In this document: positions 57,677 through 64,000 of the stretch, in pieces
Layout: each line of letters starts with the position of its first letter
How positions within the stretch are numbered: position 1 is the first letter of the stretch
NCBI GenBank assembly: GCA_963975045.1
Contig: CAXBGJ010000001.1
Span: 12,220 to 76,219, forward strand
Direction of reading: 5' to 3'
Length of the DNA: 64,000 nucleotides
DNA from: an uncultured Marinomonas sp.
Lineage (GTDB): Bacteria > Pseudomonadota > Gammaproteobacteria > Pseudomonadales > Marinomonadaceae
The notes under the pieces: generated by a model
The model's database searches: none
Seen by the model: the letters and a program-made list of their open reading frames with translations, nothing else
Told to the model about the DNA's origin: nothing
Position numbers and translations under genes: made by a program

Positions 57677-57790
57677 TTACAAGAATCCCTGTCAAACGCC
57701 ATCAGACATTTACAAAAAAAAACAATTCAATGCTATTAAAATCGAATAAAATGCATTACTAAAGAAAGCATTTAGAATGAAATTATAACG

Positions 57791-57991
57791 TTATTTCTCT
57801 AGAGCCTTACGTAAACTAAGGGGACGCATATCAGTCCAAACCTCTTCAATATAATCTAAACATTCCTGTCGATTTTTTTTATGTCCAACGGCTTCCCAAC
57901 CATTAGGCATTTCTTTTTCTGATGGCCAGATAGAATATTGCTCTTCATGATTGACAACCACATAGTACTCCAAAGTATCTTCGTAATTCAT
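57791..57991 (-). CDS. mbtH: MbtH-like protein
   Basis: [12 protein letters not shown]...PNGW...[17 protein letters not shown] with three conserved Trp; GAGG SD. Confidence 0.97.
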
Positions 57992-58335
57992 GTACCCTCA
58001 ATGACTAATGTCTTTTGAAAAATTAATAATATGATGAGATAACACACATAAAATGAAACAAAACACCCTCTCACCACCTCTTCCTACCACATAAAGCATA
58101 CCTACTGGACACTCAATTAAGGCAAACCAATATTCATAGCCCAAGAGCTTGTCTTCACTAGGTTAAGTCATCTATTAAACATTCCTCTAAAATCGATTTT
58201 TAGCATAATCCATTACTTCAATAACATTGCCTTTCAAAAGATAAATCACGTCAAATTGAAATTTTTTTTCAACAAATGATAACGAAGAAAACACTTTCCT
58301 ATTAAAAAACAGAAACTGTATAATCCATCATAATT

Positions 58336-58367
58336 ATTATTTGTTAACGAGTTAAAACTCGTCAACA
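58336..58367 (-). promoter_or_regulatory. Candidate sigma70 promoter for the cluster, overlapped by a 26-bp near-perfect palindrome
   Basis: Minus strand: TTGACG (58365-58360), 18 nt, AATAAT (58341-58336), pointing at mbtH. The palindrome tgttaacgagtt-aa-aactcgtcaaca (58342-58367, one mismatch) covers the -35 and spacer. Confidence 0.5.
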
Positions 58368-58480
58368 TGACCTAAAATGTATGAAAAAAATATACCTTTA
58401 ATAAAAAACGTTTGCAACTTTCTTGAGAGCTTCTTATATCAACCCATAGGCAGCGACCCCAAGGGATATCTGATCAAGTC

Positions 58481-58541
58481 AAATCAACGCGCTGATTTTT
58501 TTCAAAACGATAAAAAACTGCGATTTGATTTTTTATCGTTT
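58481..58541. repeat. Two adjacent inverted repeats upstream of the cluster
   Basis: aaatca-acgcgc-tgattt (58481-58498) and a perfect 13-bp IR aaacgataaaaaa(11)ttttttatcgttt (58505-58541). Confidence 0.6.
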
Positions 58542-59077
58542 CTTGGCCTCGGAACAAAATGAATTTAACTTTACTCCGTATTTTTTTAAACAAATTAGCT
58601 CCTTACATCTCACCTCATCGAATCATCTCAAAGCACACATATAAGCACAAAAAGTATCATCAATTTATTGTCATCATTAGAAATAAATCCATAAATAAAC
58701 AACTCAAAAGGTAATGGTTTACAGGCTATAAGCTAAACGATAACTTACCAGAACCCCCTATTTGGACTCGCTCAGGATGCCATCGCTGAATGGATAAACA
58801 AACTAACCTCTGCATTGAAAGGTAGCTAAATCGATAAGGGAATGGATTTCTACCTCTTTTAAGCAAGCCAATCGCTAGACCAGAAACCCAGAGTAAACAC
58901 AGGCAAGCGTCATACTCAAATGCTCTTTACACCACTACCTTTAGCCTCGCAGTAATAACAACTATGATGTGATTACCCAAGCTATTAAGATCGAAATATG
59001 ATTTGATTATCCTTCATATTCACATTACATCTATGATTAGATAACGAGTATTATTCAAAGCGTAGAAAATCCACACA

Positions 59078-59311
59078 CTCTATCTCAGAATCACTCATGT
59101 TGTACCAATATTGCATACAGTGAATACGGAACATTTTCTAAAATGGGTAAGGCTTTCTATCATTCCCAGACTAAGGATAAAACAGGTCAATAAGAACTTC
59201 TAATTGATCCAAAAACATCAACTCATTCATGCGAGTGAGGAATAGCACTTTGCGTATATTACGTTTTTTTCTGTTAAATTCGCTGCCAGAAAAAGTAAAT
59301 TGATGCGACAT
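59078..59311 (-). pseudogene. IS5-family transposase remnant (N-terminal about 78 codons, two in-frame stops)
   Basis: Not in the ORF track. My translation is MSHQFTFSGSEFNRKKRNIRKVLFLTRMNELMFLDQLEVLIDLFYP*SGNDRKPYPF*KMFRIHCMQYWYNMSDSEIE, collinear with IS5 InsH (MSHQLTFADSEF...[31 protein letters not shown]). Confidence 0.88.
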
Positions 59312-59347
59312 TCTTGAGGCTCGATTTAGAAAAATCAGATTGCTGAA

Positions 59348-59640
59348 TTAAAGGAAATTACTCGCATGCTCCCTAGATCTATGGATTAATGAACCTAGCA
59401 AGATTGCCATCTTGCGCAACGATAAAGCATGTCTCGCGATATCTTCTATGATATTGCATTCTTTTGAGGCATTACCCAGTTCTTCAGAGAGACAGAGCAA
59501 CCCTGCTTTATGTTTAGTGAGTGGATTGTTGACATGCAACATAGAGAGTTACCTTTGAGATAGATTGAAGATTCAATACCTTCATCAAAACGGGTAACCC
59601 TCTACCTTTCAAGTAGAATTGTCGGATCAAGTCAAGACTA
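59348..59640 (-). mobile_element. IS481-family remnant: left-end region, 5' hairpin and frameshifted transposase N-terminus
   Basis: MLHVNNPLTKHKAGLLCLSEELGNASKEC matches gammaproteobacterial IS481 transposase starts. An adjacent frame then gives SRDMLYR (cf. SRDTFYR), showing a frameshift. A 12-bp stem with one mismatch (59542-59553 / 59593-59604) lies upstream of the ATG. Confidence 0.8.
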
Positions 59641-59647
59641 ATATTAT

Positions 59648-60001
59648 TTAAGATAGATAACTGTGTACTCTTTTTTTATAAGCAACCGCGTTCATATCTC
59701 GAACATCAATACTAATACTATTTACGTCTTTCAATTCAGTCGATAGCTTTTCACGTACTAAAATAGCAAGAGCTTCTTTATTTTCATCACTACGCCCTTC
59801 TAAAAGCGATACGGTTAAATGCATAAAAGTCTCGCCTTTTTTTGATAGCTTAAAATGATCAAAAGGAATGGCTCTGATTTTAATATCATCAGGCTGCATC
59901 AGACCACTCTGACAAGCCGCATTAAAAATGGCCTCCATTATTTCATTCATATCTACCGTATCCTCAATGCACCTAGAATACTCAATTACAAAATGCGGCA
60001 T
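59648..60001 (-). CDS. 5-carboxymethyl-2-hydroxymuconate isomerase-like protein (tautomerase superfamily)
   Basis: N-terminal catalytic Pro (MPHFVIEYS), DIKIRA, FMHLTVSLLEGRS and ISIDVRDM...YKK. Confidence 0.85.
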   Translation of the reverse strand: MPHFVIEYSRCIEDTVDMNEIMEAIFNAACQSGLMQPDDIKIRAIPFDHFKLSKKGETFMHLTVSLLEGRSDENKEALAILVREKLSTELKDVNSISIDVRDMNAVAYKKRVHSYLS

Positions 60002-60013
60002 ATGACTTACTTC

Positions 60014-61465
60014 CTAGAATAAATTTAGGTATTCACGCTCTTCCCACTCGGAAACGGTCGTAAGATAGCGATCCCATTCCGCTTGTTTGATAGTGGCATA
60101 ATAGCGAACAAAGTTAGGACTAATTTTATCCGAGTAAAAAGAGCCAGAGGTAAAGGCAGTTAATGCCTCCTGTAAACAAGTAGGTAACCTTTTTGCATCA
60201 CTGGTTAGCAGGTTAGATACCGGTTCAGGAGCACTAAGATTTCGTTCTAACCCATCCATCCCGCTCAATATTTGGGACGCTATATATAAGTAAGGGTTGG
60301 CGGCAGGTTCACCTACTCTGTTTTCAATTCTACTGGCTTTGTCACCTGGTTTAGCAAGGCAGCGAATCATTGCACCACGGTTATCTCGGCCCCATTGAAT
60401 ACGGTCAGGAGCTAACGTAAGTGGTCTATAACGTTTATAACCATTCACGGTAGGCGTAGAAAAAATACAACTTTCCTCTGCGTGCTCAAGCACGCCAGCA
60501 ATCCAGTTTTTTCCTATAGGAGAAATAGCCTCACCTTCTTTAGGAATAAAAACATTTTCTCCCGTCTTGATATCGACAACAGACTGATGCAGATGCCAAC
60601 CACTCGCGATAGATTCTTTAAAGCGAGGGCGACACATAAAGGTCGCATGGAAGCCATTTCGACGACAAACCTGCTTTACCATTGAGCGAAACAAAATCAT
60701 ATTATCGGCCTGCTCTAGAGCTGGCCTAGGGTCAAAAGTCACTTCAACCTGACTTGGGCCAAATTCAACCTCTAATGTGCGAATCGGCAAACCTAACCCT
60801 TGAGCATTACGACGAATCAAATCGAACACATGCTCCATTTGATCATAACAATCTTCGGTCAAATATTGATAACCCGTTGAAATCTGCTCAAGCTCAGGTA
60901 AGTGCTGTGGCATTCCCATCGCATTAGGCTGTACGGGTGTTTCTATCTTTTTAAACACATGAAACTCAACTTCTAAACCCGCAATAAACTCTAGGCCGGT
61001 ATCGTTAAGTTTGCGCTGCGCTTTTTGCAATACAGATCGCGTCGAGAATTCCAAAGGATTGCCATTGCTGTAATACAAGTCAGCAAGTACCCATGCACTA
61101 TGAGGCGCCCAAGGCAGAATTTTTAACGTGGATGGGTCAGGAAGCATAAGCACATCACTCGCGCCAGTCATCGTGCCCTCACCAAACCCAGCATCACTTT
61201 CCCAAACAGGGAACACAGTATTATGAGAGGTGTCTTTCAATAACATCGTCGATGTCATGGCAATACCGCTTTCAAAAGCAGACTTCAATGCATCAACAAC
61301 AATTGTTTTTCCTCTCAACACACCATGCTGATCGACAAAAGAAACACGTACAACTTCAATGCCTTTTTCCACCATAAGCGCTAAAGATTTCGCCCTGTCT
61401 AAATACTGCTGATTTGTCCATAAATCATATCGTTTCGCAAACTCTACTTCGTTTCCATTTGACAT
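60014..61465 (-). CDS. Glutamine-synthetase-like ligase (probable gamma-glutamylating enzyme, not housekeeping GlnA)
   Basis: DQHGVLRGK, GLEVEF, EVEFGPSQVE, GWHLHQS, NGYKR, WGRDNRGAMIR and RIENRVGEPAANPYL. It sits in an oxygenase operon and has an extended N-terminus. Confidence 0.85.
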   Translation of the reverse strand: MSNGNEVEFAKRYDLWTNQQYLDRAKSLALMVEKGIEVVRVSFVDQHGVLRGKTIVVDALKSAFESGIAMTSTMLLKDTSHNTVFPVWESDAGFGEGTMTGASDVLMLPDPSTLKILPWAPHSAWVLADLYYSNGNPLEFSTRSVLQKAQRKLNDTGLEFIAGLEVEFHVFKKIETPVQPNAMGMPQHLPELEQISTGYQYLTEDCYDQMEHVFDLIRRNAQGLGLPIRTLEVEFGPSQVEVTFDPRPALEQADNMILFRSMVKQVCRRNGFHATFMCRPRFKESIASGWHLHQSVVDIKTGENVFIPKEGEAISPIGKNWIAGVLEHAEESCIFSTPTVNGYKRYRPLTLAPDRIQWGRDNRGAMIRCLAKPGDKASRIENRVGEPAANPYLYIASQILSGMDGLERNLSAPEPVSNLLTSDAKRLPTCLQEALTAFTSGSFYSDKISPNFVRYYATIKQAEWDRYLTTVSEWEEREYLNLF

Positions 61466-61489
61466 TTTAACTACCTCAAATCAGCGTTT

Positions 61490-62812
61490 TTATAGATCAG
61501 CATCCCACGTACAAGCTTGTCTTCTGCTTTTATCTCGTTCAGGCCAAGATGACTCCCAACTGTCTGTCGGAGCAACCGCATCCACAGCAACAGGGCCTTT
61601 GATCGTTTTAGCCACGGCTTCGCTCACATGTAAAGGCAACTCACTTCTATCACCACCTTCCGCGACCAATTTCATCGCTTTGATCAATTTTCGACGATGC
61701 TTAATAATAGCTTTATCTGTTGTCCCGAGGTGTTCATGCCTTCTGTCTTGAATCGGTCCCATAGACTCACACGCCCACTGATCATGGACATTAATATCCA
61801 TCCCTAAACCAGTCCAAGTCTCATTTTCTTGCTCTGCCCTACTATATCCGTATTCATTACTTTTATTACGGACAGGGGCGTAGTCAGGAAGGGTGTGTTC
61901 TTTTAAGCGCTGATCTCTCATTTTTTCTTTATCAACAGGGCTACCAAAACTGGTAAACATAGAAACCCAATACGATGTTTCGTCATCAACGGGAACATGC
62001 CACTGCGTAATATTCATTTCATTCGACATAGGGATTGTGATGGCGCAAGGAAAAACTTGATTCGTTACACGAACATGGGTCTGACCGTTTTGCAAATCTC
62101 TCAGTGCTATAATACGCATACCAAAATCAGTATCTTCTACCTCAATGACAGGCCTATCAAATTCACGCAATACTTTTGTAATAGGTAAATTTGTATCCGC
62201 TGCATTATCTCGAAACTGTTTACCATATTGATCTTTTGGATCTTCATCTTTTAAGAAACGATGTAAAAAAGAGGCATGCGCAGGGTCAATACCCACTTCT
62301 AATGCCTGTAACCAGTTACACTCCCAAAGCCCTTTAAAAGCAAAAACATGAGATTCAGGCGCTTTAAAGCAATCAAAATCAGGGAACGCGGGTGGAACAT
62401 CATCTCCAAGATAGGCAAATATCAGACCATTTATTTCTTTTAGAGGATAAGACCTGATTTTAATTTTTTTACACATTTTAGAGTCTTCAGGCTCTGCTGG
62501 TTGATTAATGCACTGACCTGTTTCATCAAACTTCCAACCATGGAACGGACAACGAATACCGTCATCCTCAATACGACCAAATGTCATATCGGCACCACGA
62601 TGCGGACAATGACGTGCCATAAGAACCAGATTCCCTTTTAAATCTCTATAAAGTGCTAACTTTTCACCCAAAACATTGACTGGAATAACGGGGCGGTCAC
62701 CCTCAAGCTCTTCAGAAAGCGCAACTGGCATCCAATATTGACGAAGCATATTGCCACCTAACGTTCCAGCGCCAACTTGTGTAAGTTCATTATTCTTATC
62801 TTGACTCATCAT
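61490..62812 (-). CDS. Rieske non-heme iron oxygenase, phthalate 4,5-dioxygenase / LigX-like alpha-only type
   Basis: Rieske motifs CPHRG and CPFHGW, mononuclear iron motif DPAHASFLH, and distal DQWACES. Confidence 0.88.
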   Translation of the reverse strand: MMSQDKNNELTQVGAGTLGGNMLRQYWMPVALSEELEGDRPVIPVNVLGEKLALYRDLKGNLVLMARHCPHRGADMTFGRIEDDGIRCPFHGWKFDETGQCINQPAEPEDSKMCKKIKIRSYPLKEINGLIFAYLGDDVPPAFPDFDCFKAPESHVFAFKGLWECNWLQALEVGIDPAHASFLHRFLKDEDPKDQYGKQFRDNAADTNLPITKVLREFDRPVIEVEDTDFGMRIIALRDLQNGQTHVRVTNQVFPCAITIPMSNEMNITQWHVPVDDETSYWVSMFTSFGSPVDKEKMRDQRLKEHTLPDYAPVRNKSNEYGYSRAEQENETWTGLGMDINVHDQWACESMGPIQDRRHEHLGTTDKAIIKHRRKLIKAMKLVAEGGDRSELPLHVSEAVAKTIKGPVAVDAVAPTDSWESSWPERDKSRRQACTWDADL

Positions 62813-62863
62813 AATAAATTTGCCTTTTGTCTAAATATATTTGTTGTAGATCGTCCGTCTTAT

Positions 62864-64000
62864 TTATAAGAAATCTTTTAATTTAATCGACGGCTGTTTG
62901 GCTAACTCTTTTGATATCTTCGCGTTTTTCGATACGAGTTTCCGAGCAGCTATATGATCAGCTGCACTATTAATAGAGTCGACTCTGACTAAATTTTCCC
63001 CTTGGAAATACAGTAAAGAAAATTTATTTGAAGCGATCTCGCCTCGACAAATAAGATCATCGTATTCGAGCTCTGTACCAACCATTTGGAGTTTTAAATC
63101 AAGTTGATCTGACCAAAACCAAGGAGCAACTCTTTCAGGTAAAACAGCGCCAGTAAGACGAGCAGCAATTGTTTTAGCCTGATCAACGGCGGTTTGTACT
63201 GATTCAATGCGAGAAGCGGCACCTTTGCCCGATTGCTTCCATACAGAACAGTCGCCACATGCTGAAATACTAGGATCCGAGGTTACACAGGATTCATCAA
63301 CCACAATGCCATCGTTACATATCAAACCAATTGATCGAGCCAGCTCATCACTCACCGTTGTGCCAATACCTACCACAACCGCGTCGGCGTGTAGCACTTG
63401 CCCATCGTCTAAATGCACAATGACACTAGAGCCTTGATCCTTTTCTATTTTCACTATTTGTGAATTGAATAAAAAATTAGACCCTGACGCTTCGTGCTTC
63501 TTAATCAAAAAATCAGACATCACCGGAGGAAAGAGCCGTGAAAGTAAGCGCTCTCCCCTCACAATGACAGTGGACTTTATTCCTAGCTTCACTAGTGTTG
63601 AGGCGACTTCTAAGCCAATAAAACCGGCTCCAGCTACCACAACACTCTTCGATGAAAGAAAGGCTTCTTTTAAACGCAAAGCATCTTCAATAGAGCGAAT
63701 ACAAATAACGTTTGGTAAATCTCCCCCAGGTACTGAAAGAGGTTTTGCCAAAGCCCCTGTTGCTATCACTAAATGGTCAAAGTGGTATTCTGTAATGCCG
63801 CTATCTGAACCGCGGCGCTTAACCGTGACCTTTTTATCCGTACGATCGATTGCCTTTACCCACGTATCATTAACGATATCGATTGACTTATCTGCGTAAT
63901 ACGTCGGGCTTCGAAAACTAAGGCTCTCGACGTCTGCCCCACCATATAAAACGGCTTTAGACAAAGGCGGGCGCTGATAGGGATAGGCCGCCTCACCATT
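62864..64000 (-). CDS. FAD/NAD(P)-dependent ferredoxin reductase (GR type), 5'-truncated by the window edge
   Basis: The frame is open to the window end (NGEAAYPYQRPPLSKA...). Motifs LVIATGA, GAGFIGLE, ISACGDC, RIESVQTA and PWFWSDQ. Confidence 0.9.
   Translation of the reverse strand, partial: NGEAAYPYQRPPLSKAVLYGGADVESLSFRSPTYYADKSIDIVNDTWVKAIDRTDKKVTVKRRGSDSGITEYHFDHLVIATGALAKPLSVPGGDLPNVICIRSIEDALRLKEAFLSSKSVVVAGAGFIGLEVASTLVKLGIKSTVIVRGERLLSRLFPPVMSDFLIKKHEASGSNFLFNSQIVKIEKDQGSSVIVHLDDGQVLHADAVVVGIGTTVSDELARSIGLICNDGIVVDESCVTSDPSISACGDCSVWKQSGKGAASRIESVQTAVDQAKTIAARLTGAVLPERVAPWFWSDQLDLKLQMVGTELEYDDLICRGEIASNKFSLLYFQGENLVRVDSINSAADHIAARKLVSKNAKISKELAKQPSIKLKDFL

Follow-up and report, generated by a model that had tools for sequence, protein, structure and literature searches.

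A TRAP-linked operon of an uncultured Marinomonas sp. that probably encodes a Sad/Pab-type, glutamylation-dependent arylamine dioxygenase system

Introduction

In the systems that attack aniline, chloroaniline and 1-naphthylamine (AtdA1-A5, TdnQTA1A2B, DcaQTA1A2B and NpaA1-A5), ATP-dependent gamma-glutamylation of the amine is followed by Rieske dioxygenation to a catechol. NpaA1 glutamylates 1-naphthylamine and anilines ahead of dioxygenation, cells with only the oxygenase leave the free amine unconverted, and NpaA2 was shown to be dispensable (PMC11335346). A related set of genes encodes the 4-aminobenzenesulfonate 3,4-dioxygenase of Hydrogenophaga (intermedia) PBC, which is composed of the oxygenase SadA, the glutamine synthetase (GS)-like SadB, the ferredoxin SadD and the reductase SadC (Gan et al. 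2012 via PMC5632844, PMC3704786). SadB is required (PMC5632844, PMC3704786) and was implicated in deamination by gene deletion and transposon mutagenesis (PMC3704786). The natural substrate of this oxygenase group is left open there (PMC5632844, PMC3704786), the authors regarding that of SadA as probably a natural analogue of sulfanilate (PMC5632844). Here we describe an operon that lies partly within, and extends past the end of, a 64,000-nucleotide stretch of DNA from an uncultured Marinomonas sp. (contig CAXBGJ010000001.1, G000:C1:12220-76219; the whole stretch is called the window). We estimate a probability of roughly 80% that it encodes a glutamylation-dependent arylamine dioxygenase system of the Sad/Pab type, organized as a self-contained unit for uptake and deamination. 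Its substrate is tentatively put as 4-aminobenzoate, at odds slightly short of even, and otherwise as a close analogue.

The name Pab refers to the pab operon of Paraburkholderia terrae KU-15 (PabA, PabB1-B3 and PabC), which reportedly encodes a hydrolase besides a three-component dioxygenase and a ligase of the GS-like kind. These are said to convert 4-aminobenzoate to gamma-glutamyl-4-carboxyanilide and further to protocatechuate.

Results

Organization of the operon

An initial annotation of the window had described four tightly spaced co-oriented genes with gaps of 51, 24 and 12 bp, and the list of open reading frames (ORFs) gives exactly these values for four minus-strand ORFs. Reading of the contig past the window end located five more genes. 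The full unit reads IclR / DctP-DctQ-DctM-ferredoxin-reductase-Rieske-GS-CHMI, that is, eight tightly spaced or overlapping co-oriented genes with a divergent IclR gene. Three of them encode a tripartite ATP-independent periplasmic (TRAP) transporter. Genes beyond the window are numbered in L002 coordinates, to which 63780 is added for window-equivalent positions.

59648-60001, minus strand: CHMI-family protein of the tautomerase superfamily, 117 aa (P0001); Pfam CHMI 1.7e-14; last gene of the operon
60014-61465, minus strand: GS-like, predicted gamma-glutamyl-arylamine ligase of the SadB/NpaA1 type, 483 aa (P0002); Gln-synt_C 1.2e-82
61214-61270, minus strand: substrate loop of the ligase, residues about 66-84, located by alignment
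61490-62812, minus strand: alpha-only Rieske oxygenase of the phthalate family, SadA type, 440 aa (P0003); Rieske 1.5e-21 and LigXa_C 1.2e-30
62864-64108 (reaching L002 328, past the window end), minus strand: glutathione reductase (GR)-type FAD ferredoxin-NAD(P)H reductase, full length 414 aa; Pyr_redox_2 3.9e-55 and Reductase_C 1.1e-26
L002 316-645, minus strand: Fer2 [2Fe-2S] ferredoxin, 109 aa; beyond the window
L002 665-1972, minus strand: DctM of the TRAP transporter; beyond the window
L002 1987-2475, minus strand: DctQ of the TRAP transporter; beyond the window
L002 2499-3536, minus strand: DctP, TRAP binding protein; beyond the window
L002 4045-4815, plus strand: divergent IclR-family regulator, 256 aa; beyond the window

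The start of the reductase gene overlaps the end of the ferredoxin gene by 13 nt, and DctM, DctQ and DctP follow upstream of the ferredoxin with gaps of 19, 14 and 23 nt. The gap between the Rieske and ligase genes is 24 bp, and the operon has no beta-subunit ORF, neither in the ORF list nor on the contig. The initial annotation had also named a ferredoxin, a glutamine amidotransferase and a regulator as genes that might lie past position 64,000. The first and the last are present, as the Fer2 protein and the divergent IclR gene; a glutamine amidotransferase is absent from the full contig-read unit. None of the four window proteins fits a curated NCBIfam equivalog.

The ligase resembles arylamine glutamylases and carries a polar/basic loop

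In a sequence search of the PDB, the closest solved structure for the ligase is NpaA1 (8wwu; E 2.8e-126, 425 bits), while no true glutamine synthetase or GmaS scores above 182 bits (true GS, E 1e-52). Were the protein a glutamine synthetase or a gamma-glutamyl-polyamine/alkylamine ligase of the PuuA, GmaS or IpuC type, its adjacency to an oxygenase would be incidental. NCBIfam models of that kind give similar scores, 247 bits for GlnA, 241 for gamma-glutamylputrescine synthetase and 236 for type III GS, but all fall far under the respective cut-offs of 429, 650 and 470. Together with the PDB scores, a separate GlnA elsewhere in the genome, only 26% identical to the ligase, and a Rieske pairing kept in 35 of 37 loci (described below) make such an identity very improbable. 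A role in osmolyte, polyamine or methylamine catabolism was rejected on the PDB and NCBIfam scores and on the aromatic-acid type of the binding protein.

The residue roles given for NpaA1 (PMC11335346) were mapped onto an alignment with the window ligase. The amine-binding pair E232/E234 is kept. The position of V201 is occupied by Tyr, likewise in AtdA1 and GS, and the pocket would therefore suit a single ring. The hydrophobic arylamine loop V68-M81 of NpaA1, made up of A, I, G, P and F residues, is replaced by T-S-T-M-L-L-K-D-T-S-H-N. An alignment of 41 ligases shows a polar/basic loop of the form T-(S/T)-T-x-L-L-K-D-T-S-H-(R/N)-T-V in every ligase that partners an alpha-only oxygenase, spanning the marine clade, Burkholderia, Polaromonas, Reyranella, Pigmentiphaga, Streptomyces, Novosphingobium resinovorum SA1 and Hydrogenophaga; both aniline-type enzymes of the alignment have P-F-F-F-D. 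We infer that the polar/basic loop would be adapted to arylamines whose substituent is negatively charged. Residue 81 is His in the window, in the Burkholderia type and in most of the marine clade, Asn or Asp in N. resinovorum SA1 and Hydrogenophaga, and Asn in Pseudooceanicola. It possibly marks carboxylate versus sulfonate specificity, on a comparison that includes only two lineages known to degrade sulfanilate (N. resinovorum SA1 and Hydrogenophaga) and in view of the Asn of Pseudooceanicola.

The retained architecture for binding ATP, glutamate and amine also bears on the order of the two reactions. Alternatively, the Rieske enzyme can be imagined to hydroxylate the free arylamine acid first, the GS-like protein then removing or transferring the amino group. 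This was the original hypothesis for SadB, drawn from deletion and transposon data (PMC3704786). The nearest characterized relative, NpaA1, nevertheless glutamylates before oxygenation, and its oxygenase by itself is inactive on the free amine (PMC11335346). With the NpaA1 architecture present in the window ligase, we regard the reversed order as improbable.

A quick maximum-likelihood tree with SH-aLRT support sets the aniline-type ligases in a clade of their own (support 100). The window ligase falls in a 15-member, mainly marine clade (100), nearest to Sneathiella, Thiothrix and Oceanobacter (98), and a 19-member clade (99) holds N. resinovorum SA1, Burkholderia sp. YI23, Polaromonas sp. 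JS666, a Hydrogenophaga copy, Pigmentiphaga and Reyranella. The matches of a tblastn search of plasmids fall into tiers. Copies with 47-57% ligase identity, found in Nitratireductor, Pseudooceanicola, Burkholderia/Caballeronia, Paraburkholderia phymatum, N. resinovorum SA1 and Polaromonas JS666, are paired with alpha-only oxygenases. Those with 42-44% are the classical aniline/chloroaniline TdnQ/DcaQ-type copies of Delftia, Comamonas and Variovorax, and NpaA1 stands at 40%.

The oxygenase appears intact and keeps one predicted carboxylate anchor

The Pfam matches uphold the initial description of an alpha-only oxygenase of the phthalate/LigX type (Rieske and LigXa_C) associated with a GR-type reductase (Pyr_redox_2 and Reductase_C). 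The closest PDB matches to the oxygenase are isophthalate dioxygenase (IPDO; 9ina, 2.3e-68), the uncharacterized RO_CH34 (7fhr) and phthalate 4,5-dioxygenase (PDO; 7fjl). Residue roles in these three enzymes, including the common carboxylate anchor PDO Arg244, are described in PMC8649396. The Rieske ligands C69/H71/C88/H91, the iron ligands H179/H184/D344 and the bridging D176 are all present, and R248 is the equivalent of PDO Arg244 and IPDO Arg234. Among 36 family members, neither R248 nor R238 varies, and the metal-site positions are invariant or nearly so. PDO Arg207, which binds the ortho-carboxylate, is not conserved; its position aligns to Leu, Ile or Met in a gappy region. The position of PDO Asn266 and IPDO His257 is held by an invariant Gln, which a His follows two residues later, and PDO Phe339 and Ser179 are replaced by an invariant Asp and an invariant Pro. 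The retention of the metal sites and R248, the loss of Arg207 and the change of Phe339 to Asp therefore suggest an intact oxygenase with one anion-binding site in a remodelled, more polar pocket.

Electron carriers, transporter and regulator

The operon has its own Fer2 ferredoxin and a separate GR-type flavin reductase with Reductase_C. The reductase is nearest to the HcaD/AndAa type and stays below those NCBIfam cut-offs.

By sequence, DctP is nearest to 7nsw, 7nrr, 7nr2, 5im2, 5i5p and 5iga (E about 1e-54 to 1e-65; phmmer 3.6e-65 for 7nsw, 7nrr and 7nr2). An AlphaFold model built from 39 orthologues (pLDDT 89.6) superimposes on aromatic-acid TarP substrate-binding proteins with Z scores of 42-44, a root-mean-square deviation of 1.3-1.6 A and 33-36% identity. 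With ligands taken from the PDB entry titles, these are TarP_Csal (caffeate, coumarate, ferulate), TarP_Sse (cinnamate, coumarate) and four marine-metagenome proteins "specific for aromatic acid ligands". Z stays at or below 33 for proteins that bind sugar acids, ectoine, pyroglutamate, isethionate or sialic acid. On both the sequence and the modelled fold, DctP is assigned to the aromatic-acid-specific TarP clade. The IclR regulator scores best with the PcaR/PcaU/PobR subfamily (211 bits; cut-off 285). A TarP-clade DctP and a PcaU/PobR-like regulator together point to an aromatic carboxylate as substrate and inducer.

The IclR-dctP intergenic region contains a 44-bp imperfect palindrome at L002 3576-3619 (window-equivalent 67356-67399), with 22-nt arms that are 77% complementary and no spacer. 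It lies 40-80 bp ahead of the start of dctP and may be an operator at which the divergent regulator acts. Just past the IclR gene lies a second, separate uptake operon (L002 5157-10556, window-equivalent 68937-74336) that encodes a TAXI-type binding protein (NMT1_3), a DUF1850 protein, a fused 744-aa DctQM permease and a HutF-like amidohydrolase.

Conservation and genomic context

The GS-like protein has thousands of close relatives, with 56-76% identity, in marine and soil Proteobacteria, among them Sneathiella, Saccharospirillum, Oceanobacter, Thiothrix, Nisaea, Roseibium and Arenicellales. In 28 of 29 genome loci with a ligase identity of at least 46%, the ligase gene is directly preceded by a homologous Rieske gene; in seven of eight further loci the two are adjacent or within 2 kb. 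The pair is thus adjacent or no more than 2 kb apart in 35 of 37 related loci from Alpha-, Beta- and Gammaproteobacteria and Streptomyces; bearers include Reyranella, Pigmentiphaga, Granulosicoccaceae, Kordiimonadales and a Streptomyces. The four-gene arrangement of the window is far beyond chance. As judged from gene order and homology, the two-gene Rieske-GS core is a strongly conserved module around which the transporter, electron carriers and tautomerase vary. All-against-all clustering of the ORFs around 32 loci, in which spurious antisense ORFs from high-GC genomes blurred the picture, brought out transporters (TctC, MFS, Liv), TetR and zinc-dependent alcohol dehydrogenase only, and no shared ring-cleavage genes. 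A ligase orthologue of 60% identity in Amorphus orientalis (L052 9001-13203) has no Rieske partner at all, and its gene faces a cluster of an amidohydrolase, 3-hydroxyanthranilate 3,4-dioxygenase, RidA and a Liv-type ABC importer. This context hints at use of the ligase with a different amino-aromatic acid.

The order of all nine genes is identical in Sneathiella chinensis (Alphaproteobacteria), Oceanobacter (Gammaproteobacteria) and Azospirillum, whose proteins are each 47-79% identical to those of the window and whose flanks are unrelated. In S. chinensis (L004 1-3094), the nine-gene operon directly adjoins ectoine synthesis genes (EctB-type aminotransferase, EctC and aspartokinase), an adjacency that is probably coincidental. 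The oxygenase was absent, at E <= 1e-60, from 24 genomes of the same genus and 16 of the same order, and the operon is therefore accessory in the present organism. It was probably acquired horizontally. Its GC content (42.5%) matches that of the genome (43.2%), so that composition offers no sign of recent transfer.

The operon ends 2 kb upstream of a 47-kb polyketide synthase-nonribosomal peptide synthetase (PKS-NRPS) lipopeptide cluster and in the same orientation, which raises the thought that its products are tailoring or precursor-supply enzymes for the lipopeptide. That is hardly credible, as Sneathiella, Oceanobacter and Azospirillum carry the nine-gene unit and show neither NRPS nor PKS in 9-10 kb of flank, and the unit has an importer and a regulator of its own. 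Moreover, a spacer of about 2 kb (57677-59647), AT-rich (34.5% GC) and with promoter-like sites, separates the CHMI gene from the cluster. We rejected the link because the operon recurs intact in unrelated contexts. The spacer also carries a 64-aa minus-strand ORF (59348-59542), and the one terminator-like hairpin in it (59436-59457) belongs to the plus strand, which leaves the CHMI gene without a recognizable intrinsic terminator after it.

A divergent tautomerase accompanies the core in some loci

All seven operon-linked homologues of the tautomerase keep the catalytic Pro1 together with the motifs DIK-R, GR(T/S) and RDM-YKK. The NCBIfam model for HpcD (PRK15031) scores it at 30 bits against a cut-off of 215; the protein is therefore not an HpcD/HpaF orthologue, and is a divergent member of the superfamily. 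Its nearest structures are uncharacterized proteins. A CHMI-like gene accompanies the Rieske-GS pair in six of 37 other loci, where it adjoins the GS-like gene (Sneathiella, Oceanobacter, Azospirillum, a gammaproteobacterial metagenome-assembled genome, Pseudooceanicola and N. resinovorum SA1). Its occurrence over both main clades, including the sulfanilate degrader SA1, leads us to connect it with the deaminating dioxygenation rather than with the lower pathway. A role for the gene as a marker of a homoprotocatechuate route was rejected, as it is not an HpcD orthologue and the second LigB-family gene of the genome is YgiD-like.

A CHMI-like paralogue with 40% identity lies on another contig (C81 5786-6148, L078) and is flanked by genes for a phospholipase A1 and a D-2-hydroxyacid dehydrogenase; a glyoxalase-family gene stands one position further upstream. 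This context is uninformative. As called, it has a 4-residue extension before Met-Pro, so that its true start is probably the internal Met.

Fate of the product and identity of the substrate

A protocatechuate 4,5-cleavage cluster on contig C11 (165-8669, L074) encodes LigK, 4-oxalomesaconate tautomerase, a LigI-like hydrolase, LigA and LigB. The genome also has catechol 1,2-dioxygenase (catA) and muconate cycloisomerase (catB), and can therefore consume protocatechuate or catechol. A match to 4-sulfomuconolactone hydrolase is sub-threshold (223 against 500 bits) and was read as the LigI-like enzyme, sulfocatechol genes as such not having been searched for directly. The cleavage genes on C11 adjoin a DctPQM transporter of their own and a PAS-domain methyl-accepting chemotaxis protein; the locus looks like an island for sensing, uptake and cleavage of aromatic acids.

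Instead of 4-aminobenzoate, a pathway of the same kind can serve another anionic arylamine, such as sulfanilate, 2- or 3-aminobenzoate, aminosalicylate, 4-aminophenylacetate or 4-aminocinnamate, with a different catechol as product. In the literature searched, the only documented member of the class acts on 4-aminobenzenesulfonate (PMC5632844, PMC3704786). Sulfanilate is, however, a xenobiotic, yet the clade is widespread in marine bacteria and metagenomes, and ligase residue 81, which is His in the window and in the Burkholderia type, is Asn or Asp in the sulfanilate lineages, two in number. The solved TarP relatives bind hydroxycinnamates and 4-hydroxyphenylacetate, and the presence of a CHMI-family gene brings to mind the homoprotocatechuate pathway, into which 4-aminophenylacetate would lead. 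Against the latter stand the 30 bits of the CHMI-like protein under a 215-bit HpcD cut-off and the only other LigB-family gene of the genome, which is YgiD-like and not HpaD. The catechol 1,2-dioxygenase makes a conversion of anthranilate to catechol possible, and the 3-hydroxyanthranilate dioxygenase next to the Amorphus orthologue is a further point for another substrate. A substrate from this wider group is a possibility to be kept in mind, with the chances leaning against it.

Discussion

The idea of the initial annotation, that an amine is protected and then oxidized on an amino-aromatic acid, gains support from the predicted arylamine-glutamylase character of the ligase, the apparent carboxylate-anchoring Arg of the oxygenase, the TarP-clade assignment of DctP, the ferredoxin and the regulator. 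A pathway can be proposed by homology, with the order of glutamylation before oxygenation taken from the aniline and naphthylamine work. The TarP-clade TRAP transporter would import an anionic aromatic amine, likeliest 4-aminobenzoate. The GS-like ligase would then use ATP and L-glutamate to form the N-gamma-glutamyl anilide. The alpha-only Rieske dioxygenase, supplied with electrons from NAD(P)H by way of the GR-type reductase and then the [2Fe-2S] ferredoxin, would dihydroxylate the carbon bearing the amide nitrogen and its neighbour. Collapse of the resulting gem-hydroxy-amide would give glutamine (or glutamate and ammonia) and a catechol. If the substrate is 4-aminobenzoate, the catechol would be protocatechuate and would enter the 4,5-cleavage pathway of the genome. 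The Pro1 tautomerase may, speculatively, speed the keto-enol rearomatization of the hydroxy-dienone left after departure of the amide. The PcaU/PobR-like IclR regulator would control the operon.

Several points weigh against this assignment to a Sad/Pab-type system for 4-aminobenzoate. The substrate of the operon and the functions of its enzymes are assigned by homology across the whole clade. In the quick tree, the window ligase and oxygenase belong to a clade that is sister to the Sad-like/Burkholderia clade and not inside it, and the substrate specificity may therefore differ. Those nearest TarP relatives with named ligands take hydroxycinnamates or 4-hydroxyphenylacetate, not aminobenzoates. 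The 4-aminobenzoate precedent of the pab operon was not found in the literature searched. Neither the operon nor the genome shows a gamma-glutamyl hydrolase (Peptidase_C26/GAT), although NpaA2 proved dispensable (PMC11335346); a genome-wide search with PF07722 (Peptidase_C26) gave only weak partial matches of 22-40 bits, mostly within larger open frames. The tautomerase is found in only six of 37 related loci, and the role proposed for it is conjecture. Finally, the Sad authors hypothesized that SadB acts after hydroxylation, not before (PMC3704786).

The locus leaves the existing picture unchanged, as the logic of the pathway has already been described for aniline, naphthylamine and sulfanilate and, reportedly, for 4-aminobenzoate. 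Its value is that of a clean and complete example, in which a single operon provides the regulator, the importer, the ligase, the oxygenase with its whole electron chain and, in addition, a tautomerase. The operon belongs to a large uncharacterized marine clade. The aromatic-acid-type TRAP binding protein offers a direct handle on the question of the natural substrate of Sad oxygenases, and the basic ligase-loop signature is usable as an annotation rule to separate "anionic arylamine" from "neutral aniline" ligases. 4-Aminobenzoate is a folate precursor or breakdown product and a known exometabolite. A more far-reaching proposal is that the TRAP-linked marine clade represents the natural form of Sad-type dioxygenases and serves marine heterotrophs as a dedicated path for the uptake and deamination of 4-aminobenzoate. 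Its nitrogen would go to glutamine and its ring to protocatechuate, and the CHMI-like protein would be a previously unrecognized third catalytic component that rearomatizes the dienone. We consider the proposal as a whole doubtful.

Comparison with known systems

The aniline-type systems share the logic of the window operon and differ in their components. They read GS-amidotransferase-alpha-beta-reductase, in agreement with the initial statement that they use alpha/beta oxygenases, whereas the window operon is without a beta subunit and an amidotransferase. The window oxygenase belongs to another Rieske family, and the ligase, 40-43% identical to theirs, falls in a separate clade and has a basic instead of a hydrophobic loop.

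The loci of Burkholderia sp. YI23 and Polaromonas sp. JS666 are closer, reading GntR / alpha-only Rieske-GS-like-ferredoxin-GR-type reductase. The YI23 proteins are 55%, 51%, 46% and 40% identical to those of the window, and the ligase loop is the same, including His81. The YI23 locus fits the reported layout of the pab operon. Both loci add a Peptidase_C26/type 1 amidotransferase gene slightly further on, rely on MFS or Liv-type ABC systems for import and on GntR for regulation, and are without a CHMI-like gene. The window operon, in contrast, has a TRAP importer, an IclR regulator and a CHMI-like gene, and no hydrolase.

The likeness to Sad is in the arrangement, with an alpha-only phthalate-family Rieske gene directly beside a GS-like gene, a 2Fe-2S ferredoxin and a separate reductase in the window operon too. 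The pairing of an alpha-only oxygenase with a GS-like ligase is not new, since the Sad system (PMC5632844, PMC3704786) has the same architecture, and the novelty implied by the initial annotation was overstated. A Hydrogenophaga genome, compared in place of the authentic PBC sequences, shows Rieske (53%)-GS (40%)-ferredoxin in the sadABD order with a DctP close by. In the sulfanilate degrader N. resinovorum SA1 (plasmid pSA3), the oxygenase and ligase are 56% and 49% identical to those of the window, and a Rieske-GS-CHMI arrangement lies beside maleylacetate reductase, with ferredoxin, reductase and glutaminase nearby. The polar/basic loop is common to the ligases of this Hydrogenophaga genome, SA1 and the window. 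Compared with Sad, the window copy belongs to a separate, mainly marine clade and is joined to a TarP-type TRAP importer and a PcaU/PobR-like IclR regulator. Compared with the sulfanilate lineages, it has His in the loop where theirs have Asn or Asp, and its genome has protocatechuate 4,5-cleavage.

The nearest solved folds, PDO (7fjl) and IPDO (9ina) of Comamonas testosteroni KF1, have the same metal ligands and carboxylate Arg as the window oxygenase, which differs from them in its pairing with a GS-like ligase and in a three-component electron chain in place of a fused reductase. Set against these systems, the locus is best seen as a marine member, complete, linked to a TRAP transporter and lacking an amidotransferase, of a pathway type described before.

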